Shown here: piece after piece, positions 1,935-51,277 of the stretch
How the letters are laid out: every line of letters begins with the position of its first letter
Numbering within the stretch: the stretch's first letter is position 1
Assembly (NCBI GenBank): GCA_028718125.1
Contig: JAQUMN010000016.1
Coordinates: 12,041 to 76,040, forward strand
DNA from: Kiritimatiellia bacterium
GTDB lineage: Bacteria > Verrucomicrobiota > Kiritimatiellia > JAAZAB01
Direction of reading: 5' to 3'
DNA: 64,000 bases
The notes under the pieces: model-generated
Database searches by the model: none
Told to the model about the DNA's origin: nothing
Seen by the model: the letters and a program-made list of their open reading frames with translations, nothing else
Program-made: the position numbers and the translations under genes

Positions 1935-2715
1935 GGAAACACGTGCTGCGGAATACTGGGACATGGAAGCCAGGCGCTATGAACAGCTGGCATCGGCGGA
2001 AAACGCCCGCCGGATTTACCCCATGCACGAATTCCGCAACAAGTATGTCCTTGAGTTGCTTGGCGACAAGCCCTGCCGCCATCTCGAGATAGGGTGCGGG
2101 CCCGGCCGGGCGATCCTCGGGCTCATGCAACAGGGATGGCGCGAGGTGTCCGGAGTGGACATATCGCCCGGGATGATCGAGCTGGCTAAGCGCACCATAG
2201 CCGGCGCGGGTTATGATCCGGCGCAGGCGGACCTTAAAACCGCCGGCATCGAGGCGCTGCCCTTCAAGGACGGCACGTTCGATTCCGTTGCCTGCGTGGG
2301 CGTGATCGAGTATATCCGGGACGAGGATTCGGCCCTGAGGGAAATCGCCCGGGTCATGAAGCCCGGCGGCAACCTGGTGATAACCGTGCGCAACAGGATG
2401 TGCCTATACCGGCCGTCTGATCTGGTGGCGCCCCTGCTTCACCGGGTGCAAGGCGGCGAACACGGCGCGTGGTTCCGGACGCATATTCCCTGGAAGTTCT
2501 CCGGGAAACTGGCGCAGCACGGCCTGGTGAAAAAGGCGCACGCCTACTATCATTTTTACGTTGTGCCGGCCCCGTTCGACCGGTATCTGCACGGGCGCTG
2601 GCTGGCGCCGGCCATCGCCATGGAACGGCTGTCCGCATGCGGGATTTCAGCCCTGCTGGCGTCCGGGCTCATCGTAAAGGCGCAAAAAAATCGCAATCCG
2701 GAAAAAGGAGATTAG
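1924..2715 (+). CDS. class I SAM-dependent methyltransferase
   Basis: SAM-binding motif LEIGCGPGRAI plus VMKPGGNLVI. First in-frame ATG at 1924 overlaps the deacetylase stop by 11 nt. Confidence 0.7.
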   Translation: MRGEETRAAEYWDMEARRYEQLASAENARRIYPMHEFRNKYVLELLGDKPCRHLEIGCGPGRAILGLMQQGWREVSGVDISPGMIELAKRTIAGAGYDPAQADLKTAGIEALPFKDGTFDSVACVGVIEYIRDEDSALREIARVMKPGGNLVITVRNRMCLYRPSDLVAPLLHRVQGGEHGAWFRTHIPWKFSGKLAQHGLVKKAHAYYHFYVVPAPFDRYLHGRWLAPAIAMERLSACGISALLASGLIVKAQKNRNPEKGD

Positions 2716-2717
2716 CC

Positions 2718-4796: not shown

Positions 4797-4850
4797 TAAC
4801 AGTCGGCTGTTCAACCGGCGCCGTTCGTGGCGGCCCACGCCGGGCATGGC

Positions 4851-6429: not shown

Positions 6430-7878
6430 ATGAATATGAATGAACCAGTAACAGACGCCCCGGCATTGCGCGGTGAAGGATGCGCGGGTCATGGGGCGCG
6501 GTGGCTGAAGAAAATGGGCAATCCCCATTTCGTTTTCGGGATCGCGCTCCTCGTGCATGTCGGCTGTGTGCTTGCGATGCAGCATTATCGGCATCCGGTT
6601 TGGATGGAGAGCGGGGCCATTGCCAGCTTCATGTACGAAGGCAAAGGCTTTTCCATCCTGCCGAAGTCGGAACAGCGCCTGTATTCGGAGGAGGCCAAGA
6701 GCCGGGCCATCGAGCGCGTCCAAAAAGGCGGGACCATTCCCTTTTCGGAATTGCACCCCACGAGCCTGCATTCACCCGGCTATCCCTATGTGCTTTATGC
6801 GGTCTGGAAAGTATTGGGCCGCAATCCAACCGCCTTCCTGGTCATTTCCCTGTTGCAGGCGCTGCTGATCAGCTCGCTCGTGTTCCCGTTGCGTTGGTTG
6901 ACGGCGCGATGGTTTGGCGACCGGGCGGCTGCCTGGGCCATGTGGATCGCGGCCCTGATGCCGCTTTACGCCTATTATGCCACGCGCTTGTTGCCCGTGG
7001 CGGTGTTCATCTCGCTGCATCCGTGGCTATGGATGGCGTGGCTGAGGTTGCGCGATAAAAATACCATAACCAGGGCCGCGGGCGTGGGCGCCGTGACCGG
7101 ACTGGCCAGCCTGTTCCAGCCGCTCCTGCTCGCCATTTTCGGATTGCTGGGGGCCGGCTGGTTGGTAGGCGCACTTCGGCGTAAAGACCTGCGCCAGGCC
7201 GGTCTGTTGATCGGCTGTGCCATGCTGGCCGTGGCCGTCCTGGCGCCATGGACGGTGCGCAATTTCCGGATCCACGGCGAACTCGTTCTTGTCCGGTGCG
7301 GATCGGGTCCCTTTTGGATTGGCAACAATCCCCATGCCACCGGGGCCGCGGTCATTGCCGGCGGCGCCGAGGATATCTACCTGGCCTATCCGCCGGCGTG
7401 CATCACGCAGGGCACGGAGCTCACGGAGATTCAATATCACCGCGCCCTGCGGAAGGAAGCGCTCGATTATATTTTCCGGGAGCCGGGGGCTTTTATGAAT
7501 CGGACGCTGCGGAAGATCAGCTGGTTCTGGACTTGGGTGCCCGATAAGTACCTGGTGAATAGACCGGGCGAAACGGCCGGCGTGCAGTTCCGCTGGCTCA
7601 GCATCGGGTCCTGGCTGGCGTTGCTCGTCCTGGCGACGCTGGCGCGGTGGCGCAGGCGTTGGCCCGCGGAGTACCTGATCATGCTCGGCCTTTACGTTGT
7701 CGTCTATTCCGTCACCTACGGCCTGCTGCATGTCGGCCAAGCGCGATTCCGGGGCGAAATTGAGTTTATCCTGATCCCGGCGGCGGCGGCCGGGATCAGC
7801 CTGATATGGAGTTGGATGGCCCATGAGTCTGGATTGCGTCGAGAACAGTCTCGCGAGAGCTCGACCCTCCATGAATGA
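6430..7878 (+). CDS. GT-C fold glycosyltransferase-like membrane protein (ArnT/PMT family-like)
   Basis: Polytopic. An acidic first extracytoplasmic loop, hydrophobic core and periplasmic C-domain resemble GT39/GT83 topology. Confidence 0.4.
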   Translation: MNMNEPVTDAPALRGEGCAGHGARWLKKMGNPHFVFGIALLVHVGCVLAMQHYRHPVWMESGAIASFMYEGKGFSILPKSEQRLYSEEAKSRAIERVQKGGTIPFSELHPTSLHSPGYPYVLYAVWKVLGRNPTAFLVISLLQALLISSLVFPLRWLTARWFGDRAAAWAMWIAALMPLYAYYATRLLPVAVFISLHPWLWMAWLRLRDKNTITRAAGVGAVTGLASLFQPLLLAIFGLLGAGWLVGALRRKDLRQAGLLIGCAMLAVAVLAPWTVRNFRIHGELVLVRCGSGPFWIGNNPHATGAAVIAGGAEDIYLAYPPACITQGTELTEIQYHRALRKEALDYIFREPGAFMNRTLRKISWFWTWVPDKYLVNRPGETAGVQFRWLSIGSWLALLVLATLARWRRRWPAEYLIMLGLYVVVYSVTYGLLHVGQARFRGEIEFILIPAAAAGISLIWSWMAHESGLRREQSRESSTLHE

Positions 7879-7985
7879 TAATTTTTTCGCGATATTGGAG
7901 GGCGGAGCTCCGGCGACGCCGTTGGTTTCAGCATGAATGACGCAGCCGTGGTCCGTATGTGACGTGGACAGGAAAGGGCATTGAC

Positions 7986-9647
7986 ATGAGACGCATCGGA
8001 GCATATGTGGCTAACTGGTTCGCGATGGCGTACCGGGAACAAACGCCGACGTCGCCCGGCGCCGCAAGTTACGGACTGGTTCCCCGCCGGTGGTTTTTGT
8101 TCTTGCTGATCTGCTACTGCCTGGCGGGGATCGCGCTGGCACCCGCTTTTCGCTACGCGCTCGACACGGATGGCATCGCCTATATTTCCGAAGCGCTCAA
8201 ATTCGCCGACGGGGACTGGTTTGCCGCCGTCAACGGACACTGGTCGCCGCTGCTGCCGCTGGTCTTATCCCTGTTATTCCGGCTGGGCATCCCGGAAACG
8301 CTGGCGGTCAAGGTCGCCGGCCTGGGGATGGGCCTCCTGACCTTGATCGGCGTCTGGCGCCTGTCGGCGCGCTTCAAGCTTTCGGATGCTATCAGGAAAG
8401 CCGTGTTAATTACCCTGGGTATCATGATTCTCAACTATGCGCTGATCCGCCCGACCCCCGACCTGATGGCGGTCGGTCTGCTGGTGTTTTATCTGACGAT
8501 AGTCTTCGATCCCGGCTATGGTCAGCGGCGCTATGCCGGGATGGCCTGCGGGTTCCTGGGCGCCTGCGGCTATTTTGCCAAGGCTTATATCCTGCCGTTC
8601 TTCGTGCTTCATTTTTCGGTGATGAACCTGTTTTATTTTTGCGCTTGCCGCGGCTGGCCGCAAAGAAAAAAGATCATCGGGAAAACCGTGGCGGGCTTTG
8701 CGATGCTTGCCATCGTGACGCTGCCCTGGGTCGGCGCCTTGAGCGCCAAGTATCACGCGTTCAGCCTCAGCACGGCCGGGGCCTACAATTGGAGCATGCG
8801 GCATCCCGATTCGCCGGGCGAATTGGTGCCGGGCCTTGGATTTCTGCCGCCCGCGCACACGAACGATATCAGCGCCTGGGATGATCCGGCCCTGCTGCCC
8901 AAATTGCCCTGGAGCCCCTGGGACTCGCCTCAGAACATGCAGCACATGCTGCGCGTGATCATGTGGAACGGCGTAGTCATCACGCTGGCGCTCGTGAAAG
9001 GATCGGTGCTGGCTATCCCGATCGTGTTGCTGGGCTTCCTGGTGTTTGCCGTCCGCTGGCGGTCCTGGCGCGATTTGCCGCAATGGCTCCTGCCCCTGGT
9101 CACCGTGATCTTGTTTCCCAGCGGCTATGTCCTGCTCGATGTCAACGATCGGCTCCTCTGGATCATGAATGTCCTGATCCTGTTCCTGGGAGCGCAGCTG
9201 CTGGCCGGGATGCTGGAGCGCTGCGCCGACCGCCGGCTGACCCGGTTCTGGATCATCGTGTTTTGCCTGACCTTTGCCTGGTATCCCGTGACGCGCATCG
9301 GCCTGTGTTACAATAACGGCAAGGAGTTGCCGGTTTTGGCCGAGAAACTGCGCGTGGAGTATGGTGTCGGCGGCCGCCTCGCCTCCCACAACCGCTATCG
9401 CGAATCGCTATTCCTGGCTTATTTTATGAAGGCCCAATACTGCAACACGCCCCGCCACGATTGGAGCGAGGCGGAGATCGTAAAGCAGTTGCAAGCCCTG
9501 AACGTTGATTGCTATATCGTCTGGAACGATGGGCAGCCGCCGCCGCGGTTCCTGGAACCATACCGTGAAGTCACGCAAGGAGCCATCCCCGCCTTGCGCG
9601 TGTATGCGCTCCGCGCGGACGGGGCGCCCAAGGCTGATCCTCGATGA
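7986..9647 (+). CDS. polytopic membrane protein, possible GT-C-like glycosyltransferase
   Basis: More than 10 TM helices. D-x-D motif (ALDTDGIAYISEA) right after the first TM. ATG 7986 has a GGAAAGGG RBS; the six-frame ORF begins 7959. Confidence 0.35.
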   Translation: MRRIGAYVANWFAMAYREQTPTSPGAASYGLVPRRWFLFLLICYCLAGIALAPAFRYALDTDGIAYISEALKFADGDWFAAVNGHWSPLLPLVLSLLFRLGIPETLAVKVAGLGMGLLTLIGVWRLSARFKLSDAIRKAVLITLGIMILNYALIRPTPDLMAVGLLVFYLTIVFDPGYGQRRYAGMACGFLGACGYFAKAYILPFFVLHFSVMNLFYFCACRGWPQRKKIIGKTVAGFAMLAIVTLPWVGALSAKYHAFSLSTAGAYNWSMRHPDSPGELVPGLGFLPPAHTNDISAWDDPALLPKLPWSPWDSPQNMQHMLRVIMWNGVVITLALVKGSVLAIPIVLLGFLVFAVRWRSWRDLPQWLLPLVTVILFPSGYVLLDVNDRLLWIMNVLILFLGAQLLAGMLERCADRRLTRFWIIVFCLTFAWYPVTRIGLCYNNGKELPVLAEKLRVEYGVGGRLASHNRYRESLFLAYFMKAQYCNTPRHDWSEAEIVKQLQALNVDCYIVWNDGQPPPRFLEPYREVTQGAIPALRVYALRADGAPKADPR

Positions 9648-11275
9648 AAACGAATCGCCACACTATTCAATTCCTAATTTTCCTGGCCTTCGCGGTGCTG
9701 CTCAACGGCCGCTATGCCTGGGAAGGCGCCCGGCAAGGAGCCTCCATGCTGGTCACCGACCAGGTCAATTTTTTGACCATTTGTGCGCGGAACGATTATC
9801 CCGATCGGCTGGATGGCGACATGATTGCAGGCGAGGCGCAGAGCGCGCATTATTATATCCCGGCCTTCGTGGATCTGGTCCGCCTGTGCTCCCAGCCGGA
9901 CCACGACTACCTGCGCGGCTTGAGCCTGCTGCTCTTTTTGACCGGGATGCTTTATATGGCGGGCTGGTATCTGGTCTTCAGGATGCGGGCCGATGGCTTT
10001 ACCGCCGCCGTCCTGGCGTTTTTTGTCCGGGCGGTTTGCCCGCTGCCCGGATGGGAGCTATGGGGCATTGCCGGCCGCTGGACCATGCTGGCACGCACGC
10101 TTGTCCTGGCCCTGGTCCCCTGGATTCTGTGGCTGTGGTTGAAGCGCCGTCCTCAACGGCGTTACTGGTTTGGCGCCTGCCTGTTCAGCGGCCTGGCAAT
10201 TGCTTTCCACCCGCTCAGCGGCCTGTCGTTGGCGGCAGCCATGCTGCTGGCCGAGACTTTTTTTTATTTCTGGCAAAGTCGGCGGATTGGATCCACGCTC
10301 CGCCGATTGTTCCTGGGCGTGCTGGGCGTGGCCTGCGGTCTGCTGCCCTTGCTGATCGTCTGCGGGTTGCCGCCGGTAGGGGCCTATGCCGGAATTGATT
10401 TGGATCGGTTTAACGAAGCGTTGCGCCAGCGATTTCCCCCGGAGCTCCTGCAACCCGCTCTGGCGTTGCGGTTGTGGCTCGATCCGCGGCTCCTGGCGGT
10501 CCTGATATTGCCGTGGATGGCTTATGCGGCTATTCCGCGCGCCGAGAAACTTTCATTGCATGAGATCCATGGCTTGATGGTCCTGTTCCTCGTCGGTTGC
10601 CTGGGCGTGGCGCTGCTGCCGGTCGGGCTGGGGCTGGTGTTGCCGGGCAGCAGCAAGTCGGTTCAATATACGTTTGAAATGATTCGGTCCTTGAAACACA
10701 TGGTGATCCCCGGCGTGGTGGTCGGCGCGTTGGTCTGCGGTTGGGTTGCGGCAAAGCTGACGGCCCGCCGGCGGTATGGCCGGGTGCTGTGGGGCTCGGT
10801 TCTTATCGCGGCCGTTTTGCTGACGCTGGCCGGCCGCCATCCGGCATTCGATCGTGTGCCGGTGCTAGGCAGTTCCACGGTCCGATGCCTGTGGCCCGGT
10901 CTCTGGGAAACCCATGCCATCGAGAAGCGCCATGATCAGAAGCTTGATGGGGTGATGGCCTGGATTGGCAAGCATACCTCCGAGCGCGCCCGCTTTGTCG
11001 GACCGGGCTTGATCCGGGTGGCAGCGTTGCGGAGCGTGGTCCACGATCATAAGGGCGGAAGCATGCTGATCCGGGAAAATCCGGCTGGTTTTGTAGACTG
11101 GGGCCGGCGCGAAACCCGGGCGCGGGAGATCGGGAGCGAAAACGCGATGAAATTGCCGGCGTTGTATCGTTCCTGGGGGGCCGACTATTGGGTGACCGAC
11201 CGCGGCGTGGCCGGTCTCAAGCCCTGCTATCAGGACGATCACTGGTTCATCTACGATGTGGCGCCCCGGCAGTGA
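9644..11275 (+). CDS. polytopic membrane protein with C-terminal periplasmic domain, possible GT-C-like
   Basis: ATGA start/stop overlap with the previous gene. Multiple TM helices and a soluble C-terminal ~130 aa domain. Confidence 0.35.
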   Translation: MKTNRHTIQFLIFLAFAVLLNGRYAWEGARQGASMLVTDQVNFLTICARNDYPDRLDGDMIAGEAQSAHYYIPAFVDLVRLCSQPDHDYLRGLSLLLFLTGMLYMAGWYLVFRMRADGFTAAVLAFFVRAVCPLPGWELWGIAGRWTMLARTLVLALVPWILWLWLKRRPQRRYWFGACLFSGLAIAFHPLSGLSLAAAMLLAETFFYFWQSRRIGSTLRRLFLGVLGVACGLLPLLIVCGLPPVGAYAGIDLDRFNEALRQRFPPELLQPALALRLWLDPRLLAVLILPWMAYAAIPRAEKLSLHEIHGLMVLFLVGCLGVALLPVGLGLVLPGSSKSVQYTFEMIRSLKHMVIPGVVVGALVCGWVAAKLTARRRYGRVLWGSVLIAAVLLTLAGRHPAFDRVPVLGSSTVRCLWPGLWETHAIEKRHDQKLDGVMAWIGKHTSERARFVGPGLIRVAALRSVVHDHKGGSMLIRENPAGFVDWGRRETRAREIGSENAMKLPALYRSWGADYWVTDRGVAGLKPCYQDDHWFIYDVAPRQ

Positions 11276-28990: not shown

Positions 28991-31414
28991 ATGTCAAAAG
29001 AGAATAATACCAGAAAATTCCCGGGTAAAATATCGATATCATCAAAGAGTCTGAGCAACCAGCTGTCAATTGCATACGCTTTGATGACGATTTTACCAAT
29101 GATGTCTCTTTCTTATTTCCTGGTCATATATCTGATACCGAGCACTACGACCAGCGAGAACATTTTTCTAGTTTTTTTCTTCAGCCTGATATTGTCGCTG
29201 GCGGGTTATATAATCCTGATTAAAATCACAAAATCGATCCTGGAATTGAAAAATTATGTTGAGAATGTTGCCATGGGCAATCTAAAGCCGCCGGCGCTCC
29301 ATGATAACGCGGCAGAAGTTGATGATATCATAGAACTTGTATCGCGCATTCATCAGAAACTGCAGGATGTAGAGCAAGCACGAGCTCAAATGGAAAAGGC
29401 GGCAATTATTGAAGCAATGCCCGATCCGTTGTTTGTCATAGATCTTGATGGCATCATAATGCGTACAAATCCTGCCCAGGAAAAGGTGTTTGGCAGGAAA
29501 GCGGCAACAATGGTTGGTAAAAGGTTTGATGAACTCCTTCATGCCGTCAGGCCTCTAAATCCGGAGGAGTTTGCGCAGCTCCCGGGCAAGGTAATTGAAA
29601 CCGGAGAAGCCGGACCTGAGGAAATAGTGATTATTACCAGCGATGGCAGAGAAATACCCGCGAGCATAAAATATTCGTTATTGAAGAATGCCGAGGGAAT
29701 GCCCGTGTATATTGTTGCGGTGATGAGGGACATCACTGAGCTCAAGCGCGCGTCGGCGAAAGAAAAGGAGCTTGCCGCAGTAACCGCAGAAGCAATTGTA
29801 GAGAAGAAAAAGGCAGCCGAGCTGGAGAAAACATATAAAGAATTGAAAAGAGCAGACGAAGCATTGCGGGAGAACGAGAAGAACCAGCGGCGGCTCTTGG
29901 AAAGCATGATCAATGCATTCGCTATTTTCGAGTCGGTTTTCGATGATGCCGGCCAATTCATCAGTTGTCGGTTTGTCTTCATTAACGACGCTTATGAGCT
30001 CATCACCGGGGTAAAATACAAGGAGGTAAAAGGCAAGACCATCCATGAGGTATGGCCCAGGACAGAACCGGAATGGATCAATAGGTTAGGCGAGGTCGCT
30101 GTCACGGGCATTTTCCAGACGTTCGATATGTACCACGATCCGACACAAAAATCCTATCATTGCAATGTCTATCGTCCGTGGAATACAAAGGATCGCTTTT
30201 GCGTAATATTCGAAGACATCACCGATATCAAACGCGCGGCGGCGGAGAACGCAAAACTCGAAAACGAGCTTCAACAAGCCCATAAAATGGAATCAGTGGG
30301 CCGATTGGCCGGCGGCGTGGCGCATGACTTCAACAATATCCTGCAGATCATCCTGGGCAATATTGAACTGGCCCTGGCCCGAATGGAGCCGGACGACCCG
30401 CTCCGCGATGATCTTGAGGAGGTTCAAATAGCTGGCCGGCGCGCCGCTGATCTAACTCGTCAGTTGCTTGGCTTCGCCCGCAAGCAGACGATCGCTCCCC
30501 GGACGATGGACCTGAACGCAACCGTGGCAAGTATGCTCAAAATGTTGCGCCGCCTCATGGGCGAGGATATCGAGACGGTGTGGACGCCCGGTGCAGGCCT
30601 GTGGCCAATCAGGATGGACCCGGTCCAGATTGACCAGATTCTGGTCAACTTATGCGCCAACGCGCGCGATGTCATTACCGACACCGGCACGGTGCAAATC
30701 GCGACGGAAAACGTCCGTGTGGATGAACAGCATGCGGCGCGTCATGACGGGGTTGTTCCCGGCGACTATGTATTATTGAAGGTCAGCGACACCGGTTGCG
30801 GCATGGATGCGGAGACGCAAAGCAAAATCTTCGAACCGTTTTTTACGACCAAGCCGCCGGGGAAGGGCGCCGGGTTGGGGCTGGCCACCGTATACGGCAT
30901 CGTCAAGCAGAACCATGGATATATCGGCGTTTACAGCGAACCGGGCATGGGCACGACCTTACACATCTACCTGCCCCGGTACATGGGCAACGAAAAGGCG
31001 CCCGCCGTGGAAAGTCCGGCGAAGCCTCTCACCAGGGGAAGCGGGCTGATATTGCTGGTGGAGGACGATTTGTCCCTGCTGGGTATGTGCAGCCAGATAT
31101 TAACTAAATTAGGCTATGGCGTGCTGGCGGCCGGGACGCCGGATAAGGCCTGTTATCTGGCGGAAGAACATGCCGACGAGATTCGAGTGCTGGTGACCGA
31201 CGTCATCATGCCTGGCATGAACGGACGCGAACTGGCCACGCGGATAAAGACGCGCTATCCACATATCAATTGTCTGTTCATGTCCGGATTTACGGCGGAC
31301 ATCATCGCCCGTCAGGGCCTGCTGAAAAAAAGCGATCATTTCATCCAAAAGCCCTTTTCGATGGGGGATCTGGCCGCCAAAATAAATGAAACGTTGAACG
31401 ACAGTGCCGGCTGA
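28991..31414 (+). CDS. hybrid sensor histidine kinase / response regulator (membrane-anchored N-terminus, PAS domains, HisKA, HATPase_c, REC)
   Basis: RBS AAAGGAAG. H-box VAHDFNNILQ, G-box region, C-terminal REC (VTDVIMPGMNG). Confidence 0.85.
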   Translation: MSKENNTRKFPGKISISSKSLSNQLSIAYALMTILPMMSLSYFLVIYLIPSTTTSENIFLVFFFSLILSLAGYIILIKITKSILELKNYVENVAMGNLKPPALHDNAAEVDDIIELVSRIHQKLQDVEQARAQMEKAAIIEAMPDPLFVIDLDGIIMRTNPAQEKVFGRKAATMVGKRFDELLHAVRPLNPEEFAQLPGKVIETGEAGPEEIVIITSDGREIPASIKYSLLKNAEGMPVYIVAVMRDITELKRASAKEKELAAVTAEAIVEKKKAAELEKTYKELKRADEALRENEKNQRRLLESMINAFAIFESVFDDAGQFISCRFVFINDAYELITGVKYKEVKGKTIHEVWPRTEPEWINRLGEVAVTGIFQTFDMYHDPTQKSYHCNVYRPWNTKDRFCVIFEDITDIKRAAAENAKLENELQQAHKMESVGRLAGGVAHDFNNILQIILGNIELALARMEPDDPLRDDLEEVQIAGRRAADLTRQLLGFARKQTIAPRTMDLNATVASMLKMLRRLMGEDIETVWTPGAGLWPIRMDPVQIDQILVNLCANARDVITDTGTVQIATENVRVDEQHAARHDGVVPGDYVLLKVSDTGCGMDAETQSKIFEPFFTTKPPGKGAGLGLATVYGIVKQNHGYIGVYSEPGMGTTLHIYLPRYMGNEKAPAVESPAKPLTRGSGLILLVEDDLSLLGMCSQILTKLGYGVLAAGTPDKACYLAEEHADEIRVLVTDVIMPGMNGRELATRIKTRYPHINCLFMSGFTADIIARQGLLKKSDHFIQKPFSMGDLAAKINETLNDSAG
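30371..30990. repeat. near-identical (~97%) 620-bp segment, copy 1 (kinase core of hybrid HK)
   Basis: Nucleotide-level comparison with 53820..54439 shows about 19 differences in about 620 nt. Confidence 0.85.
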
Positions 31415-31561: not shown

Positions 31562-32722
31562 TTACCAGTTGGCGTTGAGAATGGGCATCACCGGCGTGAT
31601 GTTGTTGAGGGCCAGGTTGAGTATGCCGAACTGGATGCCGTCAAGCTCCTGGCAGAAATTAACTATGCCGAATTGAAAACCGGTAAGTTTGCCGGTCATG
31701 TTGACGCCTGACCATTGCACCCCGTCTGTATTCCTTGCATAGTTCACGCCCAGCAGCGGCAAAACAATCTGAGCGCCGCTGACGTCGCCCATGGCAAGAT
31801 TGACGCCGATCAGGCCCGCGACTTGCGCCCCGCTGACGTTGTTCAAGACAAAGTCTGCGCCGATGACGCTGAATTGACCTCCGGCCACCTGGTCGAGCGT
31901 GACATTCAAGCCGGCGCCCATTATCTGGGCATCGGCCGATCCCGCCACCCAGTTCGCGCCGGCGACCCCGAGCTGGGCCCCTTGTGCATTGCCGTTGACA
32001 TAGTTGGCGCCAAAGCCGCAGATTTGCTTGTCGGCGACATCCAGGGAAGCGTTTGCGCCCGCGGCCACAAATTGCCCGGCATTAATGGCGCCCAATGACA
32101 GGTTAAGCCCGGCGCCCAGAATCTGCAGGTCGGCATCACTACCGGCGAAATTCAAGCCGGCCGCGACTATCTGGCCGCCATTGGCTTTTTCGGTGGCCCA
32201 GTTGGCGCCTATTCCGGAAATCTGGTTGTCGGAATCAGCGCCGGTAAAATTGAGACCAATACCATTGAACTGGCCGCCATCGTGCTTGCCCATCGTCATA
32301 TTGATCCCGGCCAGGGTCAGTTGCCATCCGCCGGCCTGGGCGCCGACGTAGTTCAAGCCAACGGGCGCCAGCTGCACCCCCTGGCCATTTTCTAAAATTA
32401 CGTTGCCAAGACTGAGCTGAAATGACTGGGCCTGGCTTTCAACGATATTGACGATGCCTAATTGGGCGCCCTTCAGGTTGCCCATCAGGTCGTTAATCAC
32501 CCCGATGTCCATGCCGGTCAAGTCGTTGTTAAGTCCATAGATCAGGTTGATGCGCAACCCGTGGATGGAACATTCGGCGTCCTGAATCTGGATCGGGGTC
32601 ACAAGGGACAACTGGAAATTTGAGACGTTATTGTTCGGGGTGGACGCGGCATCCTGGGCGCCGCATGCCATTGCCCATGCCAACGCCAGTAAGCTGACTG
32701 CGGCTGCGACGATTCGGTTCAT
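31562..32722 (-). CDS. secreted tandem-repeat protein (about 18 imperfect 16-18-aa G/A/N/Q-rich repeats; beta-solenoid-like)
   Basis: Signal peptide MNRIVAAAVSLLALAWAMA. Repeating Q(L/F/I)xx(A/I)G(L/A)N(F/W/Y)xxGxxAxxG units. Confidence 0.5.
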   Translation of the reverse strand: MNRIVAAAVSLLALAWAMACGAQDAASTPNNNVSNFQLSLVTPIQIQDAECSIHGLRINLIYGLNNDLTGMDIGVINDLMGNLKGAQLGIVNIVESQAQSFQLSLGNVILENGQGVQLAPVGLNYVGAQAGGWQLTLAGINMTMGKHDGGQFNGIGLNFTGADSDNQISGIGANWATEKANGGQIVAAGLNFAGSDADLQILGAGLNLSLGAINAGQFVAAGANASLDVADKQICGFGANYVNGNAQGAQLGVAGANWVAGSADAQIMGAGLNVTLDQVAGGQFSVIGADFVLNNVSGAQVAGLIGVNLAMGDVSGAQIVLPLLGVNYARNTDGVQWSGVNMTGKLTGFQFGIVNFCQELDGIQFGILNLALNNITPVMPILNANW

Positions 32723-32939
32723 TGCATTCTCCCGGTTGATTGTTAACCGCATTATAACATTATTGAAACGCTCAGGCTTAGTTGATTTCTACAATTTCCG
32801 CAAAATAAATGCAACCATCATTTATACACAGCCGTGCTTTGATGCGCTCCCGCGGAGAATGCCGCTTGGCAAATGGAGTGGCTTTGCGATAATATATCCG
32901 TGTTCTGTTGAGCACACCATTTGAAATGAGGGGCAGTGC

Positions 32940-35249
32940 ATGAAAGCTGAAGCAACAACAGGGGTGCCGGAAATAGACCGGCTGGCTGGCGGAATAATTC
33001 CCGGCGACAATATTGTCTGGGAAGTTGATTCAGGCGTGCCGGTCGAACGCTTTGTGGTCAGTTTTCTCGCCGCCTGTGCGCACGAAAAATCTTTGGTCAT
33101 CTACGTCAGCTTCAATTCATCCCCGCAGACGATAACGAACAAATACGCATCCCTGTTGCCGAAAGGGGACTTTGTGTTGGTGGATTGTTTTTCTTCGGGT
33201 AAGGGAAACAACGACAGGGTATTTTTAGATTTTTTCAAGACAACCGAAAGCAACACGCCCAATGCGACCGTTCATCTGGAGAACCCCTCTGATCCCGGCA
33301 AGCTCGAACAATTGTTGATCAAACTTGGAACCCATGGTCAAAGGAGAGTGCGGTATATATTTGACAGTCTCACGGGCATGTTGGATCTGTGGGGTGATGA
33401 GGAAAGCGTTGTAAGATTGTTTGGGCACATTTGCCCGAGACTTTATGATCTTAACACGATTGCCTGCTGGATATTGGAGAAGGGGGCCCACTCCCCTTCG
33501 TTTTTGGCCAAGATCCGGCATATCACCCAGGTTGTATTCGATGTTGCGGTTTCGCGCGGTGTTCACACTCTGACGATCAGGAAAGCAAGCAATCGCCGCT
33601 GTGAGTATGTCGGCATTCCCCAGCAATTAATTCTGCAAGACGGGACAATCAGCGTGGCCGTCGAGACGCGGGAAGGGCGTGAATTGGGGCTGCTGACCAG
33701 AATGGGCGAGGTGTTGGGCAGCGCCCTTGATCCGAACTCGTTTTTCGAGCAAACCATGAAAGCTTTGGCCAACGAGCTTGGCATGGTTCGGGGAACCATC
33801 GTCCTTCTGGATAAAACCTGCAATAGATTAAAGATTGTTGCCGCCCATGGTCTTTCGGACGAGGAACAGTCCCGGGGACAATACGCAATTGGCGAGGGAA
33901 TAACAGGACAGGTTGTAAAAACCGGGGTTGCGGAAATAATTCCTGACATCGGCAAGAACGGGCGTTTCCTTAACCGGACGATTGCCCGTAAAAACGACAT
34001 TGCCGGCCCAATCGCTTTTATTTGTGTTCCCTTGAAAGTCGATGATGAAATCGTCGGCGCCTTGAGCGTAGATCGTCCTTTTGCCTTTGACAGTGCGCTT
34101 CAAAAAGACCTGAGAATGCTTTCGATCGTGGCCACCATCGTTTCCCAGGTCCTGAAAATCAACTCCCTGATCCGGGTGGAAAAAGAAGAAATTCTGGACC
34201 GCGATCAGGGTCGGCTTCGGGAACTTCGCAGCCGCTATCGCCTTGATAATGTGATCGGCGAGAGCGAAGCCATCCGGAAGGTTATGGCTATGGCGGCCAC
34301 GGCGGCAAAATCGCGAGCCTCTATCCTTGTTACCGGCGAAACCGGAACGGGCAAGGAACTGGTTGCCAAGGTGGTTCATTATAACAGCGCCCGAACCTCG
34401 GGTCCCTTGATCAAGGTCAATTGCGGAGCGCTTCCGGAGGACTTGCTGGAATCCGAACTCTTTGGGCATGTCAAGGGGGCGTTCACGGGAGCCTTGCATG
34501 ACAGGAAGGGACGCTTCGAAATGGCCGATGGCGGCACTCTCTTCCTGGATGAAATCGGAGAAATGAGTCCGCGGCTTCAGGTTAAACTGTTGCGCGTTCT
34601 TCAGGAGCGGGAATTCGAACCGGTCGGCAGTCCGAGGACGGTTGCGGTTAACGTGCGCGTGGTTACGGCAACCAGCAAGGATCTCAGGGAAGAAGTGCGC
34701 AAGGGTCGTTTTCGGGAGGATCTCTATTATCGCCTGAATGTGATTCCAATCCACCTGCCGCCCCTGCGTGAGCGCCGGGAGGATATTCCCTTGCTGATTA
34801 ACCATTTCCTGGAAATATTCAATCGGGAAAACCACAAGAATGTTCGGAAGTTGTCCCGGAAAGTGCTCGATATCCTTCTCGACTATCCGTGGCCCGGCAA
34901 TGTGCGCGAGTTGGAGAATTGCATGGAACGCGTGGTGGTGATGATCGAGGGGGATGCTTTATCCGCCGATTTATTGCCGTCGGAAATCCTCGATCATGAT
35001 CGCCAGGGATCTCTCAAGCGCAAGCAACCGTCTTCCGCGGATATACTGGACATCCGGGCGGCGGCCGAACGGCTCTGCGCCGGAACGAACGATCTGGCAT
35101 CCGCCAGGATCCTTCTGCTGCAAACGATGGAAGAGGTCGTGATTCGCCATGGTCTTCTTAAAAAAGCCAGCCAACGCGATCTTGCCAACAAGCTGGGCAT
35201 AAGCAGGATGACGCTACGCAAGAAATTGCAGTCATACGACCTGAAGTGA
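32940..35249 (+). CDS. sigma-54-dependent transcriptional regulator with N-terminal degenerate KaiC/RecA-like domain and GAF domain
   Basis: AAA+ sigma-54 activator core (GETGTGKE ... GAFTGA ... ESELFGH) and C-terminal HTH. The N-terminal ~260 aa has KaiC-like order ([15 protein letters not shown] ... FDSLTGML) but no GxxxxGKT. Confidence 0.8.
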
Positions 35250-35393: not shown

Positions 35394-35465
35394 TTGCGTA
35401 GCATCTTTATCCTCACCGGCTTACATCATTTAGCGCACGGCTTATCCTGGCATGATCCGCTCTGT

Positions 35466-35481
35466 TGGCACGAATCGTGCT
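35466..35481 (+). promoter_or_regulatory. sigma-54 (-24/-12) promoter of glnN
   Basis: TGGCACG-AATC-GTGCT with GG-N10-GC spacing. About 60 bp upstream of ATG 35542. Confidence 0.65.
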
Positions 35482-35541
35482 ATTTTATTTAGCCCGTCGG
35501 GGGGAGGCGGTCATTGCCGACATATAAAAGGAACGAATGCG

Positions 35542-37668
35542 ATGGATACCAATAGCTACGACGACTTGAAAAACATTGTCCCGGAACTGTATGGCGCGGA
35601 CGTTTTCAGCGATGCCGTCATGCGCGAGCGTCTGCCGAAGTCCGTATACAGGAAACTACGCGCCACTATCGAGGACGGGACGGCTATGGATGCTTCCATT
35701 GCCGACGTGATTGCCACAGCCATGAAAGATTGGGCGCTCGAGAAGGGCGCCACGCATTTCTCGCACTGGTTCCAGCCAATGACCGGGAGTACAGCCGAGA
35801 AACATGATGCGTTCATTGCGCCCAGGAATGACGGCACGACCATCATGGAATTCAGCGGGAAGGAATTAATCAAGGGCGAACCGGATGCTTCGAGTTTCCC
35901 ATCCGGCGGCTTGCGCGCTACTTTCGAAGCCCGCGGTTACACGGCCTGGGATTGTACAAGTCCTGTGTTTGTGAAGAAAGACGGGGAAAACACTGCGCTT
36001 TTCATCCCCTGCGCGTTCTGCTCCTACACGGGCGAGGCCTTGGACGCCAAGACGCCCCTGCTCAGGTCGATGGAGGTGCTGAACCGGCAGGCGGTGCGGG
36101 TGTTGCGGGCGCTGGGCAATACGACAAGCAAGCGTGTAACGGCCACGCTCGGCGCGGAACAGGAATACTTCCTGGTGGATCGTCGTTTTGTGGAACGCCG
36201 GCTCGATCTGATGCTGACCGGCAGAAGCCTGTTCGGTGCGCCAAGCCCGAAAGGCCAGGAGATGGAAGACCAGTATTTCGGAACGCTGCACGATCGCATA
36301 GGGTCGTTCATGGCTGATTTGAACAAGCAGCTCTGGAAACTCGGCGTTTCCGCAAAGACCCAGCACAATGAAGTCGCGCCGGGCCAGTATGAAATCGCTC
36401 CGATCTTCGGGACGGTAAACGTCGCCACGGACTGGAACCAGTTGACGATGGAGACGCTTGAGGATGTGGCGCTGCGGCATGGTTTTGTGTGCCTGCTGCA
36501 TGAGAAACCCTTTGCGGGCGTGAATGGCTCCGGCAAGCACAATAATTGGTCCATGGCAACCGATGACGGGCTGAACCTGCTGGAGCCGGGGTTGATGCCG
36601 CACGAGAACATGGTGTTCCTGGTTTGCCTCTGTGCGGTGATCCAGGCGGTGTCCAGGTACAGCAAACTTCTGAGGGCGACGGTAGCTACGCCGGGTAACG
36701 ATTACCGGCTCGGCGCCAATGAAGCGCCGCCCGCGATCGTCTCCGTCTTCCTTGGCGAGCAGCTTAGCGGCATCTTCGAACAACTTGCCGGGGGCGAGGC
36801 CAAAGGCAGGGGCCCGGACATTAAGGACATCTTCCTGGGCGCGTCGACGCTTCCCAAGCTGCCCAAGGATATGACCGATCGCAATCGGACGTCGCCTTTC
36901 GCGTTCACCGGTAACAAGTTCGAATTCCGGATGCTTGGCTCATCCCAGTCCCCGGCGATGGCAAATTCTGTGTTGAACACGATCGTAGCCGAGTCCTTGC
37001 GCGAGATGGCGGATGCGCTGGAGAAGTCGCGCGATGTTGCGGCCACGGCGCGGGAGTTGTGCGTGGCCATTGCCAAGGCCCACCGCAAGGTGATTTTCAA
37101 CGGCAACGGCTATTCTGCGGAGTGGCAAAGGGAGGCCGCCAAACGCGGCCTGCCGAACATAAAGAACTGCGTGGACAGCATCCTGGCGTTGCGCGAAAAG
37201 GAGAACGGCGACGTGCTCGCGAAACACGGCATCCTGAGCAAGGCTGAGCTGCATTCGCGCGTGGACATAATGTTGGATCATTATATCAAGACCCTCAATA
37301 TCGAGGCCCGAACCTGCCTGCACATGGCAAAGCGGCAGATCATCCCGACTGTGGTCGCTTTCAGCGGGCAGGTGGCTGGTGTCGTGCTGGCGCTCAAGGC
37401 GGCGGGCGCCAAGAATGGAGTTGCGGCCAGCCTTCTTAAAAAAGCGACCGCGCTGGCGGACAAACTGGACAAGGATGTGGCTGCGCTCGAACAGAAGCTG
37501 GAAAGTGCCGGCGGCGAGGAGAACCTGGAAAAGCAAGCCAAGGTGTTTCGCGACCAGGTTCTAAGCGGCATGAATGCCGTGCGCGAATCGGCGGATGCGC
37601 TCGAATCAATTGTCGATAGCTCGCTCTGGCCGTTGCCTTCATACGCTGAAATGCTGTTCTACCGCTGA
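35542..37668 (+). CDS. glnN: glutamine synthetase type III
   Basis: About 709 aa. GSIII-specific N-terminal region and catalytic core. Confidence 0.85.
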   Translation: MDTNSYDDLKNIVPELYGADVFSDAVMRERLPKSVYRKLRATIEDGTAMDASIADVIATAMKDWALEKGATHFSHWFQPMTGSTAEKHDAFIAPRNDGTTIMEFSGKELIKGEPDASSFPSGGLRATFEARGYTAWDCTSPVFVKKDGENTALFIPCAFCSYTGEALDAKTPLLRSMEVLNRQAVRVLRALGNTTSKRVTATLGAEQEYFLVDRRFVERRLDLMLTGRSLFGAPSPKGQEMEDQYFGTLHDRIGSFMADLNKQLWKLGVSAKTQHNEVAPGQYEIAPIFGTVNVATDWNQLTMETLEDVALRHGFVCLLHEKPFAGVNGSGKHNNWSMATDDGLNLLEPGLMPHENMVFLVCLCAVIQAVSRYSKLLRATVATPGNDYRLGANEAPPAIVSVFLGEQLSGIFEQLAGGEAKGRGPDIKDIFLGASTLPKLPKDMTDRNRTSPFAFTGNKFEFRMLGSSQSPAMANSVLNTIVAESLREMADALEKSRDVAATARELCVAIAKAHRKVIFNGNGYSAEWQREAAKRGLPNIKNCVDSILALREKENGDVLAKHGILSKAELHSRVDIMLDHYIKTLNIEARTCLHMAKRQIIPTVVAFSGQVAGVVLALKAAGAKNGVAASLLKKATALADKLDKDVAALEQKLESAGGEENLEKQAKVFRDQVLSGMNAVRESADALESIVDSSLWPLPSYAEMLFYR

Positions 37669-47998: not shown

Positions 47999-50900
47999 AT
48001 GCCGAAACGCGAAGACATAAAAAAGATCATGCTTGTCGGGGCCGGTCCGATCGTCATTGGCCAGGCCTGCGAGTTCGATTATTCCGGGGTGCAGGCGTGC
48101 AAGGCGCTCAAGGAAGAGGGCTACGAACTCGTGCTGGTCAACAGCAACCCGGCCACGATCATGACCGATCCGGAATTCGCCGACCGGACCTACCTGGAGC
48201 CGCTGACCGAACCGATTCTTGAGGAAATCATCCGCCGCGAGCGGCCGGATGCGCTCCTGCCGACGTTGGGCGGCCAAACGGCGCTGAACCTGGCCATCGC
48301 CCTTCATGATCAGGGCGTGCTGAAGCGTTACCAGATGGAAATGATCGGCGCGCGGGCGGAAGTGATCCGCAAAGCGGAGGATCGGAACCTGTTCAAGGAG
48401 GCCATGACGAAAATCGGCATGGATGTGCCGCGCGGGCAGTCTGCCCATTCCCTCGCCGAGGCGCTGAAGATTCAGGCCGCCATGGCCGTTTTTCCGCTGA
48501 TCATCCGTCCGGGATTTACCTTGGGCGGGTCCGGCGGGGGCATTGCCCGGAATGAGGCGGAATTTAGGACCATCGTGGAGCGCGGTCTGGCATACAGCCT
48601 CAATTCCGAGGTGCTGATCGAGGAATCGGTGATCGGCTGGAAGGAATTCGAGTTGGAGGTCATGCGGGACAAGAAGGATAATTGCGTCATCGTCTGTTCC
48701 ATCGAAAATGTCGATCCCATGGGGATTCACACGGGCGACAGTGTGACCGTGGCCCCGGCGCAGACGCTGACGGATCGCGAATATCAACGCATGCGGGACG
48801 CCACCCTGGCCGTCATCCGCGAGATCGGCGTGGAAACCGGCGGAGCGAATGTCCAGTGGGCGGTCAATCCGGCCAATGGCCGCATGGTGATTATCGAGAT
48901 GAACCCGCGGGTGTCGCGGTCCAGTGCGCTGGCATCCAAGGCCACGGGGTTTCCCATTGCCCGGATTGCGGCCAAGCTGGCCGTCGGCTATACGCTGGAT
49001 GAATTACGCAACGACATTACCCGTGAAACGCCGGCTTGTTTCGAGCCCGCCATCGATTATGTGGTGACCAAGGTGCCGCGGTTTGCGTTCGAGAAGTTTC
49101 CTGCCGCCGATACCACCCTGGGAACGCAAATGAAGTCGGTGGGCGAGACTATGAGCATCGGGCGGACGTTCAAAGAGTCGTTCCAGAAAGCCTTGCGCTC
49201 CCTTGAAACCGGCCGGGCCGGTTTTGGCGCCGACGGCAAGGATGGGCCGCAGGAACGCCTGTCGGATGCCGAATTGACCAGCGAGCTGGAGCGGCCGAAT
49301 GCCCAGCGCCTGTTTGCCGTCCGGGCGGCTTTCAAGCGGGGATGGACGGTGTCCCGCATTACGGAGCTGACGCAGATCGATCCCTGGTTCCTGGGACACC
49401 TGGAGGAACTGGCGGCCTTTGAAGAAGAAATCCGATCGGCGCACAATCTTGACGGGCTGAAACAAAACTTAGCCCTGTTTCGGCAGGCCAAGGAATACGG
49501 CTATTCGGACCGGCAGATTGCCTTCCTGCTGGCGGCCACGGAAACGGGAGTGCGCCAGGCTCGTGAGTCCATCGGCCTGAAACCGGTTTTCAACCTTGTG
49601 GATACCTGCGCGGCGGAGTTCAAGGCCTTGACGCCTTATTATTATTCGACCTATGGCACGATGGACGAATATCGCCCTGACAATCGCCGGAAGATCATGA
49701 TCCTGGGAGGGGGGCCGAATCGGATCGGGCAGGGGATTGAATTCGATTATTGTTGCGTCCACGCCTCATTCGCGCTGCGTCAAGCCGGGTTTGCCACCAT
49801 CATGGTCAACAGTAATCCGGAGACCGTCAGCACGGATTACGACACAAGCGATCGTCTGTACTTCGAGCCGTTGACCCTGGAAGATGTCCTTAATATTTAT
49901 CGCCGGGAGCAATGCTGGGGCGCCATCGTCCAGTTCGGCGGCCAGACCCCGCTCAACCTTACCAAGGCTTTGGAACAGAACGGCGTCCGTATCATTGGCA
50001 CGCCGCCGGCCAGTATCGAGATGGCGGAGGACCGCAAGCTGTTTCAGGAACTGATTACGCGTCTGGGTATCCGCCAGCCGAACAGCGGGTTGGCTACCAG
50101 CGTCGAGCAGGCCGAGCGGATTGCCGACCGGATCGGTTTCCCGATCCTTATGCGGCCTTCCTTCGTGCTCGGCGGGCGCGCCATGGTCATCGTTTACAAC
50201 CAGGAGTCCCTGCGGAAATATATGGCGGAAGCCGTTGAAGTGTCGGAGGATCGCCCGGTCCTGATCGACGACTTTCTCGATAATGCCGTGGAGGTGGATG
50301 TGGACTGTATTGCCGATGGCGAGAGCGTGGTCATCGGCGGGATTATGGAGCACGTCGAACAGGCGGGCATCCATTCCGGCGACAGCGCCTGCATGCTTCC
50401 GGCCCCCACGCTCTCCGAACCGATTAAGGCCACGATCCGCAAGCACACGATCGAGATGGCCCTGGCCTTGAAGGTCTGCGGCTTGATGAATGTCCAGTAT
50501 GCGATCAAGGATGGCGAAGTGTATGTGCTGGAGGTGAATCCCCGTGCCTCGCGGACCGTCCCCTTTGTCAGCAAGGCCATCGGGGTGCCGTTGGCCAAGC
50601 TGGCGGCGCTGGTGATGGCCGGGAGCAAGTTGAAAGGCCTGGGCTTTACCCGCGAGGTTCTGCCGCGGCATGCATCGGTGAAGGAAGCCGTGTTCCCGTT
50701 TGTGCGCTTTCCCGGCATCGATACCGTCCTCAGTCCCGAGATGAAGTCGACGGGCGAGGTCATGGGGATCGACATGAATATCGGGATGGCGTTTTTGAAA
50801 AGCCAGGTGGCCGCGGGGAGTGTGCTCCCGGTTGACGGCAACGTTTTTGTGAGTGTCCGCGACTCGGACAAGGACGCCGTCATTCCCTTGGCGCGGCGCT

Positions 50901-51277
50901 TGTGCGCCCTGGGGTTTACCGTGTATGCCACGGAAGGAACCAGCACGGTCCTGCGGGATCATGGCATTCCCAGCCAGGCGATCTTTCGTATCTCCAAAGG
51001 CCGGCCCCACGTGCTGGATATGATCAGGGAAAAACAGGTCGGTTGGATTGTGAGCACGCCGTCCAGCGGAGAAACTCCCCGCGTGGACGAAGTGAAAATG
51101 CGGGCTGAAGCCGTGATCCGGGGGATTCCCATCACGACCACGCTCAACGGCCTGGAATCGGCGGTGAAAGGCCTGGAAACGTTTCGGGAGACCCGGCGGA
51201 TGGAAGTGTGCAGTCTTCAGGAATACCATCGGCATGCTCCGCGTCTGAAATTGACCGCGGTGGAGAAAATCGCATGA
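47999..51277 (+). CDS. carB: carbamoyl-phosphate synthase large subunit
   Basis: Duplicated ATP-grasp halves and an MGS-like C-terminal domain; about 1092 aa. Confidence 0.95.

Follow-up and report, generated by a model that had tools for sequence, protein, structure and literature searches.

Probable gene conversion confined to the catalytic core of two hybrid histidine kinase paralogs in a Kiritimatiellia bacterium

The most probable origin of the near-identical catalytic cores of two hybrid histidine kinases, here called HK1 and HK2, is ectopic gene conversion between pre-existing paralogs, a reading that can be held with high confidence. The two genes lie in a window of 64 kb, the whole stretch of Kiritimatiellia DNA that was analysed. 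The converted segment would cover the DHp and CA domains and measure about 0.5-0.7 kb. Gene conversion is favoured because older homology is found on both sides of this segment, synonymous divergence falls 6- to 10-fold inside it, and comparison with an outgroup gives discordant trees for the core and the receiver (REC) domain. An earlier, sequence-only reading of the same DNA had named gene conversion, modular recombination, and recent duplication with sensor swapping as possible origins. The first of these is strengthened by the present analysis, and the last is not supported.

HK1 and HK2 had been described as two genes 23 kb apart, and both open reading frames are present as claimed (Table 1). 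The two copies are direct repeats, and the sole long repeat in the window joins them at an offset of +23448. Between them lie pyrG, carB, carA, and the gene for a type III glutamine synthetase (GS-III). Both reading frames are intact. The Pfam gathering score, taken as the cut-off, is exceeded in the expected order by the HisKA, HATPase_c, and Response_reg domains (PF00512, PF02518, and PF00072) of both proteins, with 31.7, 71.6, and 61.9 bits in HK1 and 32.9, 68, and 61 bits in HK2. The H-box histidine, part of the motif HDFNN, is H445 in HK1 and H299 in HK2. Other motifs common to the two are NLCxNARD, DTGCG, FEPFF, GKGAGL, VEDD, VTDVxMP, FMSG, and QKPF. The catalytic residues of HK1 continue with the N-box at 553, G1 at 600, F at 614, and G2 at 624, and its REC residues are complete (D690/D691, D737, S765, and K787).

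Table 1. Coordinates of the two kinase genes and their parts within the window.
Feature	Start	End	Strand	Description
HK1	28991	31414	+	ORF, 807 aa; membrane-anchored hybrid histidine kinase; 2 TM segments, PAS, coiled coil, PAS, HisKA, HATPase_c, REC (Pfam)
HK1 sensor region	28991	30214	+	orthologous to L001:8777-10000; not homologous to HK2 sensor
HK1 PAS-to-DHp signalling-helix linker	30215	30307	+	76% nt identity, dS 1.13; 5' flank, old paralogy
Probable conversion tract, HK1 copy	30308	30988	+	H-box/DHp and whole CA (ATPase) domain, aa 440-666
HK1 interdomain linker and REC	30989	31411	+	74.5% nt identity, dS 0.57; 3' flank, old paralogy
HK2	52877	54850	+	ORF, 657 aa; cytoplasmic hybrid histidine kinase; PAS with Cys motif, PAS, HisKA, HATPase_c, REC (Pfam)
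HK2 sensor region	52877	53662	+	two PAS domains; unrelated to HK1 sensor
HK2 signalling-helix linker	53663	53755	+	5' flank, old paralogy
Probable conversion tract, HK2 copy	53756	54436	+	DHp and CA, aa 294-520
HK2 interdomain linker and REC	54437	54847	+	3' flank, old paralogy

Both kinases belong, as long-standing paralogs, to the CckA-like hybrid kinases, a very large family with the architecture PAS-HisKA-HATPase_c-REC and more than 8000 matches at E<1e-30. Their best match among solved structures is the DHp-CA structure of Caulobacter CckA (5IDJ), with E = 1.5e-56 over DHp and CA. They share with CckA the HisKA-HATPase_c-REC order and all catalytic motifs, and CckA is also their best NCBIfam match. 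The NCBIfam CckA models align to the C-terminal transmitter-receiver part only, and orthology was rejected on their scores: 376 and 388 bits for NF046020 and 323 and 329 bits for NF046026, against an equivalog cut-off of 1000. The sensors and the genomic context also differ from those of CckA. HK1 and HK2 are best described as members of a broad CckA-like subfamily, not as CckA orthologs.

The sensors of the two kinases are unrelated, one being a membrane/PAS sensor and the other a cytoplasmic PAS sensor, as had been proposed. They share about 23% amino acid identity, that of generic PAS folds set against each other, and HK1 has two N-terminal hydrophobic segments where HK2 has none. The HK1 sensor is unusually AT-rich (GC3 0.47-0.58). 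A metagenome scan with it found no HK1 ortholog closer than the outgroup L001, which is introduced below, and gave one irrelevant match at 31% identity. A search with the HK2 sensor found no HK2 ortholog; its matches are shuffled PAS modules only, and the first PAS domain of HK2 (PAS1) is a promiscuous module that occurs fused to many different outputs.

Downstream of the sensors, HK1 and HK2 align without gaps and in one register from 30215 to 31399 (HK1 coordinates). Divergence along this alignment is not uniform; instead, there are three zones, with 76%, 96.6%, and 74.5% nucleotide identity. The limits of the central zone, or tract, are those of maximum likelihood in a two-breakpoint scan. 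It extends from the H-box through the final strand of the ATPase domain and contains 23 mismatches in 681 nt. The likelihood ratio of the scan is 65, compared with a maximum of 12.8 across 200 codon shuffles, and the step in identity is far beyond chance. At the protein level, 8 of the 227 residues encoded by the tract differ (96% identity), while the REC domains are 66% identical and the upstream signalling helices 71%. The sequence-only reading had placed a stretch of about 620 bp, about 97% identical with about 19 mismatches, at 30371-30990, and had described near-identity from the H-box through the ATPase domain with renewed divergence in REC. A direct count gives 18 mismatches in 620 nt (97.1%), and identity rises and falls as described. 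The homology of the two genes extends wider than that range.

The tract had also been called sharply bounded. At a resolution of about 100 nt this is so, although the edges are not razor-sharp. An inner block (30383-30898 in HK1 and 53831-54346 in HK2) has 9 mismatches in 516 nt, or 98.3% identity, compared with about 91-92% in the shoulders of the tract (permutation p = 0.037). The nested 98%/91% structure may hint at repeated conversion.

The break holds at silent sites, and so the step does not reflect mere constraint at the protein level. The tract has a synonymous divergence (dS) of 0.10 and its inner block one of 0.06; the upstream linker reaches 1.13 and the downstream flank 0.57 (0.58 for REC alone). 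At fourfold-degenerate sites, divergence is 0.054 in the tract (CI 0.018-0.098) and 0.404 in the linker and REC together (CI 0.277-0.532), and the two intervals do not overlap. The spectrum of changes differs in the same way: the transition to transversion ratio is 10.5 in the tract (21 transitions and 2 transversions) and 1.3-1.4 in the flanks.

Inflated identity could in principle come from the assembly, if reads from paralogs or strain variants had been merged in the conserved core. Merging of this kind is very unlikely for HK1 and HK2, as 23 differences remain, dispersed along the whole tract, and no identical run exceeds 131 nt. Neither reading frame is broken, no catalytic motif is lost, and the sequence has no Ns. 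The transition-rich spectrum, together with a dN/dS of about 0.16, is as for real young divergence, and a phase-switch error would leave the number of differences unreduced. What speaks for an artefact is the kind of data: the nearest relatives are all metagenome-assembled genomes (MAGs), and the window itself may be a metagenome assembly. Exact-sequence look-ups of HK1 and HK2 returned no record, and hence no independent assembly.

The silent sites also bear on recent duplication with sensor swapping. In this scenario, the transmitter was recently duplicated and fused to another sensor, and REC then diverged fast, insulating the two pathways. The silent sites of REC and of the linker should then be as young as those of the core, and they are not. 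Rapid protein change would be without effect on silent sites, yet these are far more diverged in REC than in the core. The 93 nt on the 5' side of the tract, although homologous, are saturated, and the flanking transition to transversion ratio is that of old divergence. The scenario does have precedent. Alm et al. 2006 (PMC1630713) describe lineage-specific expansion of histidine kinases in which domain shuffling is usual, especially in orphan and hybrid kinases, a pattern typical of signalling-rich environmental bacteria. It can also draw on the demonstrable promiscuity of PAS1, and on dN measured against L001, which is somewhat higher for the REC of HK1 than for that of HK2 (0.24 versus 0.18). 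Even so, the silent-site contrast largely refutes a recent duplication and leaves it highly improbable.

HK1 and HK2 resemble the orphan kinases of that study, hybrids included, in having a common kinase core behind different sensors, with membrane-bound and soluble members. The study does not mention gene conversion (0 occurrences), and in its model likeness of the core means recent duplication. In HK1 and HK2, by contrast, the likeness of the core is younger than the paralogy of the flanks, so that the exchange would postdate the duplication. Before it took place, the two genes would already have shared about 75-83% identity between the signalling helix and the C-terminus.

Further evidence for exchange is provided by an outgroup. 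This is the locus L001, a single lineage obtained from a scan of genome collections, which encodes a full-length HK1 ortholog and has zero neighbouring genes in common with the window. A comparison of sensor and kinase module phylogenies, suggested earlier as a check, shows that they are incongruent: HK1 clusters with L001 by its sensor and is sister to HK2 by its core, and REC gives a star in which the sequences are equidistant. Site patterns with L001 number 82 (HK1 = HK2), 8, and 1 in the inner core and 41, 44, and 33 in REC, a difference with a chi-square of 66 (p = 4e-15). The cores of HK1 and HK2 are about 5 times closer to each other than either is to L001.

The outgroup comparison also refutes the reading in which no exchange occurred and the DHp-CA core is merely under much stronger constraint, the nucleotide level included. 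The cores of L001, P0001, and P0002 are equally constrained, yet their amino acid identity to those of HK1 and HK2 reaches only 81-85%. Fourfold-site divergence from L001 is 0.25-0.29 in the core, several times that between the paralogs, and it is in the core alone that the site patterns place HK1 and HK2 together as sisters. Constraint does account for something. No zone is more conserved across the family than the core, which has 81-85% amino acid identity among clade members and a dS against L001 of about 0.5, compared with 0.85-1.2 in the flanks. Silent sites in the core change more slowly in general, and its low silent-site divergence is in part a general property of the domain. As the whole explanation, however, constraint has almost no chance of being right.

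Alternately, both cores may have been overwritten separately from a third source, either another paralog or foreign DNA. The closest outside cores show 84-85% amino acid identity, versus 96% between HK1 and HK2, and no donor closer than 85% was found in the collections searched. A protein search with the shared module had a best outside match of 74% identity, and therefore also points to no closer donor. Separate overwriting requires two events where one is enough, and mechanistically it would still be gene conversion. On the other hand, the family is very large, such organisms usually have many paralogs, and the part of the genome visible here is 64 kb; the shoulders of intermediate identity could also mean separate events. 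On balance, a third source is quite unlikely. An all-against-all comparison of 80 related loci yielded mostly plain synteny between related MAGs. A repeat in locus L064, considered as a further conversion pair, was rejected as a duplicated unrelated ORF. Among the same loci, L037 is a relevant analogue on the sensor side.

Two ways of assigning a direction to the copying were examined. Derived differences in the inner core fall on HK1 in 8 of 9 cases (p = 0.04), but the ratio over the whole tract is 14:7 (p = 0.19), which is too weak to set polarity. Base composition is no guide either: in HK1 and HK2 alike, the linker has a GC3 of 0.58 and the core one of 0.74.

Gene conversion between HK1 and HK2 could have proceeded as follows. 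A break or gap in one kinase copy would be repaired with the other copy as template, in a RecA-type, non-reciprocal ectopic homologous recombination. The source of the copied stretch would be HK1 or HK2, or alternatively a third, unseen paralog. The exchange was probably seeded in the catalytic core, because exact runs of 18-27 nt between family members that are about 83% identical occur almost only there. Its 3' end would fall in the CA-REC linker, where conservation is poor, and its 5' end in the signalling helix; further upstream, HK1 and HK2 have no shared homology. A crossover between the direct repeats would delete pyrG, carAB, and the type III glutamine synthetase gene, so only the conversion outcome would be expected to survive. 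The new combination may have been tolerated since, in hybrid kinases, a covalently tethered receiver relaxes DHp-REC specificity.

This course could represent one event or possibly two nested ones. A single clean event may be too simple, given the difference between shoulders and inner block. The case for more than one event is marginal, with internal heterogeneity at p = 0.037 and the L001 lineage as the only outgroup. As for modular recombination, the ends of the tract do coincide with the limits of DHp and CA, but the term is descriptive only. Nucleotide conservation within the family rises and falls at the same places, and selection for modularity is therefore not needed as an explanation.

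For ectopic gene conversion between paralogs dispersed in a bacterial chromosome, the textbook example is the tufA/tufB pair of Salmonella. Like other ectopic conversion between paralogs, the process proposed for HK1 and HK2 would be non-reciprocal copying within one chromosome, over a tract of hundreds of bases. Here, by contrast, only an internal two-domain segment of multidomain signalling proteins is homogenised, with non-homologous sensors on one side and diverged receivers on the other. General treatments of conversion between paralogs are available (PMC8223754, PMC6053082), and the 26 long-lasting conversion cases of the latter include no kinases. The literature searched contained no description of gene conversion between histidine kinase paralogs.

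The present arrangement is one in which two different sensors drive practically one transmitter, while the receivers remain distinct. Heterodimerisation or cross-talk between HK1 and HK2, which the sequence-only reading had predicted, is plausible because their DHp domains differ at just two conservative residues, I458V and A461V. A functional precedent is found in networks of the GacS/RetS/LadS type (PMC8175716, PMC8498467), in which phylogenetically close hybrid kinases can interact via DHp and can swap receivers yet still signal. Specificity is relaxed by tethering, and function is kept when close hybrid kinases trade receivers (PMC8175716). HK1 and HK2 are known here from sequence alone, and those networks, unlike this pair, are not described as born of sub-genic conversion.

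It is also conceivable, although unlikely, that the near-identity is maintained by repeated conversion, favoured because both kinases need one and the same DHp-CA module and act as a two-sensor unit. If so, the two would either form heterodimers or answer to a single shared DHp/CA-binding regulator or nucleotide signal. A membrane sensor and a cytoplasmic PAS sensor with a Cys motif would then be integrated at a common transmitter, with outputs that the receivers could keep separable.

The exchange proposed for HK1 and HK2 is a good example of a known process and leaves current understanding unchanged. The survival of a DHp-CA swap without the receiver in a hybrid kinase fits the idea that tethering relaxes co-evolution between kinase and receiver. 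The two genes form a natural pair for asking if near-identical DHp domains can form heterodimers when they sit behind different sensors. They are also a clean case in which genes became paralogs before their kinase cores acquired their present likeness. Sub-genic conversion can mislead phylogenies built from kinase domains only, as is usual practice (PMC1630713), and with them inferences of "recent expansion".

Two hybrid histidine kinase genes, HK1 and HK2, lie in the window at the coordinates that a sequence-only reading had assigned them. Both encode a PAS-HisKA-HATPase_c-REC architecture with all catalytic motifs intact. In the HK1 sensor, two hydrophobic segments at the N-terminus are followed by a PAS domain, a coiled coil and another PAS domain; HK2 is soluble and has two PAS domains. 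At about 23% identity, the sensors resemble each other no more than PAS folds do in general and so are unrelated, as had been claimed. The transmitter is CckA-like, with 5IDJ as the top solved-structure match (E = 1.5e-56). Assignment to CckA itself was rejected, the scores being 376-388 bits against an equivalog cut-off of 1000. The family is very large (>8000 matches at E<1e-30), and lineage-specific expansions are typified by orphan and hybrid kinases whose sensors have been shuffled (PMC1630713).

Features of the two kinase genes, their zones of divergence and neighbouring genes (identity, dS and dN are for HK1 against HK2)
Feature	Coordinates	Strand	Product	Nucleotide identity	dS	dN
HK1	28991-31414	+	807 aa			
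HK2	52877-54850	+	657 aa			
Signalling-helix linker (HK1)	30215-30307			76%	1.13	
Core (HK1)	30308-30988			96.6%	0.10	0.016
Inner block of core (HK1)	30383-30898			98.3%		
Interdomain linker plus REC (HK1)	30989-31399			74.5%	0.57	0.25
Repeat protein	31562-32752	-	396 aa			
GAF-domain sigma-54 activator	32940-35249	+				
Type III glutamine synthetase (GS-III)	35452-37668	+				
carB	47999-51277					

Both are orphan kinase genes in an ordinary chromosomal context, and no Hpt or response-regulator gene was seen adjoining either. HK1 has as neighbours glycosyltransferase genes, an unannotated repeat protein, the sigma-54 activator and GS-III; HK2 is flanked by carA and surE. The copies are direct repeats, and the intervening 23 kb carries pyrG, carB, carA and GS-III. 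The repeat protein, convergent with HK1 and immediately downstream of it, has a signal-peptide-like N-terminus and many Gly/Gln/Asn-rich units of the form GxQ(L/F)G(I/V)xN, and finds no Pfam match, even at E<=1. The sigma-54 activator has no receiver domain and lies directly upstream of the glutamine synthetase; the two may form a nitrogen-control pair independent of phosphorylation. Read from a GTG at 51208, the longest carA frame shares 70 nt (51208-51277) with the end of carB. Since its CPSase small-chain domain starts only at residue 39, carA probably begins further downstream.

Scanning the whole window for repeats, and searching it by BLAST with HK1, revealed one long repeat only, joining the two kinases at offset +23448, and no third copy of the shared segment within the 64 kb. 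Over 30371-30990, where about 19 mismatches in about 620 nt had been estimated, 18 were counted in 620 nt (97.1% identity). Homology exceeds this range, running ungapped from the end of the last PAS (30215) to the last aligned codon (31399). A two-breakpoint likelihood scan placed the low-divergence segment at the core of the table, with 23 mismatches in 681 nt versus 127 in the other 504 nt (likelihood ratio 65; maximum of 200 codon shuffles 12.8). This tract begins 15 nt ahead of the codon for the phospho-accepting His445 of HK1 and stops at the final strand of the ATPase domain ("LHIYLPRYMG"); it thus covers the DHp and CA domains. Divergence is not uniform along the genes but falls into three zones, and it resumes in the REC as had been reported. 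Within the core, the shoulders of the inner block are at about 91-92% identity, a marginal heterogeneity (permutation p = 0.037).

Four independent measures agree that the similarity of the core reflects recent ancestry. dS falls 6- to 10-fold inside the tract. Divergence at fourfold-degenerate sites is 0.054 in the tract (CI 0.018-0.098) and 0.404 in the linker plus REC (CI 0.277-0.532). The tract holds 21 transitions and 2 transversions, with a Ts/Tv of 1.3-1.4 in each flank, as expected for unsaturated versus saturated divergence.

Strong constraint could also keep a kinase core alike, and the core is indeed somewhat slower at silent sites generally. A genome-collection scan found an outgroup, L001, in a Verrucomicrobiota MAG. 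Its kinase (8777-11191), the only full-length HK1 ortholog found, is 74% identical to HK1, ungapped, over 805 residues including the sensor. dS to L001 is about 0.5 in the core and 0.85-1.2 in the flanks, but fourfold sites of the core diverge from L001 by 0.25-0.29, some five times as much as between HK1 and HK2. Core amino acid identity is 81-85% across the closest clade (L001 and the relatives P0001 and P0002), and HK1-HK2 alone stand at 96%. Constraint alone is excluded by this outgroup. The three-way site patterns settle the matter: HK1 and HK2 are grouped together by 82 sites of the inner core and the two other pairings by 8 and 1, while the REC gives 41, 44 and 33 (chi-square 66, p = 4e-15). 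Together with the incongruent sensor comparison, they give three modules with three histories: the sensor unites HK1 with L001, the core unites HK1 with HK2, and the REC is a star.

The older homology on both sides of the tract means that HK1 and HK2 were already paralogs, from signalling helix to C-terminus, before their centre was homogenised. Very probably, ectopic gene conversion homogenised the DHp-CA core of these pre-existing paralogs. The sequence-only reading had offered gene conversion or duplication with sensor swapping; the second is not supported, since a recent duplicate fused to a new sensor should have a REC and upstream linker that are young at silent sites, and neither is. 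An assembly artefact is an improbable source of the core identity: the 23 differences are dispersed, their spectrum looks natural and their dN/dS is about 0.16, no identical run exceeds 131 nt, both reading frames are intact without Ns, and a phase-switch error would leave the number of differences undiminished.

As to direction, HK1 carries 8/9 of the derived differences in the inner block, a skew that falls to 14:7 across the whole tract. The donor could also be a third copy elsewhere in the genome. No HK2 ortholog was present in the protein collection searched, and a metagenome scan with the HK1 sensor gave no useful match. Polarity from base composition proved uninformative, both genes having the same GC3 step (0.58 to 0.74) at a shared position. 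The HK1 sensor and linker (28991-30307) are markedly AT-rich (GC3 0.47-0.58; same region of the L001 ortholog 0.66-0.77; median of long ORFs in the window 0.67), which could mean that they were acquired recently from a relative of lower GC, or that composition drifted locally.

Conversion would proceed by homologous recombination between paralogs seeded in the core. Family members about 83% identical share exact matches of 18-27 nt almost exclusively there (HK1-L001 six, none in its REC; HK2-L001 one in the REC), making the core the only place to seed recombination between unconverted paralogs. On the 3' side the tract ends at the CA-REC linker, the least conserved stretch (57-63% nucleotide identity to L001); on the 5' side it ends within the signalling helix, upstream of which HK1 and HK2 have no homology. 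The conservation profile would thus explain why the tract ends at domain limits, and selection for modular exchange is not required. A crossover between the direct repeats would delete pyrG, carB, carA and GS-III, so only non-crossover products should persist. A hybrid kinase should withstand a DHp-CA replacement in which its receiver stays the same, since tethering loosens the specificity required between kinase and receiver; closely related hybrid kinases have been shown to function with exchanged receivers (PMC8175716). In line with this, the DHp domains differ only by I458V and A461V, versus several positions in REC helix alpha-1.

Exchange may extend beyond this pair. L037, a locus from a delta-proteobacterial MAG, is its mirror image: a 389-nt tract at 94% identity (4151-4539 and 9277-9665), in the part of the sensor region that immediately precedes the DHp, joins two adjacent very large hybrid kinases (2031-5807 and 6878-11179) whose cores are of different subfamilies. 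From this it seems that patchy exchange is no rarity among kinase paralogs. None of the genes neighbouring the L001 kinase match the window, and its REC is 66% identical in amino acids to that of HK1 and 71% to that of HK2, which suggests further mosaicism or mobility of the HK1-type gene. The first PAS of HK2 is a promiscuous module: at 60-75% identity it occurs in fusions with GGDEF, HD-GYP, REC and kinase outputs. At residues 80-94 (53114-53158) it has a Cys-x11-Cys-x2-Cys motif, 'CYSFWGDPVRPCANC'. The same motif, as C[HY]xFW[GA][DN]..xPCxxC, is seen again in 8 of the 120 top HK2-sensor matches, fused to different outputs, and may be the sign of a PAS subtype for metal or redox sensing that is shuffled among signalling proteins.

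Gene conversion is a well-established process between paralogs in bacteria (PMC8223754, PMC6053082), and HK1/HK2 adds a new, well-documented case to it. The long-lasting concerted-evolution cases listed in PMC6053082 include no kinases, and no description of gene conversion between kinase paralogs was found in the literature searched. Heterodimerisation and functional cross-talk between HK1 and HK2, proposed earlier, would be predictions from sequence. The finding serves chiefly as a natural test pair for DHp-mediated heterodimerisation and as a caution for phylogenies built on kinase domains.
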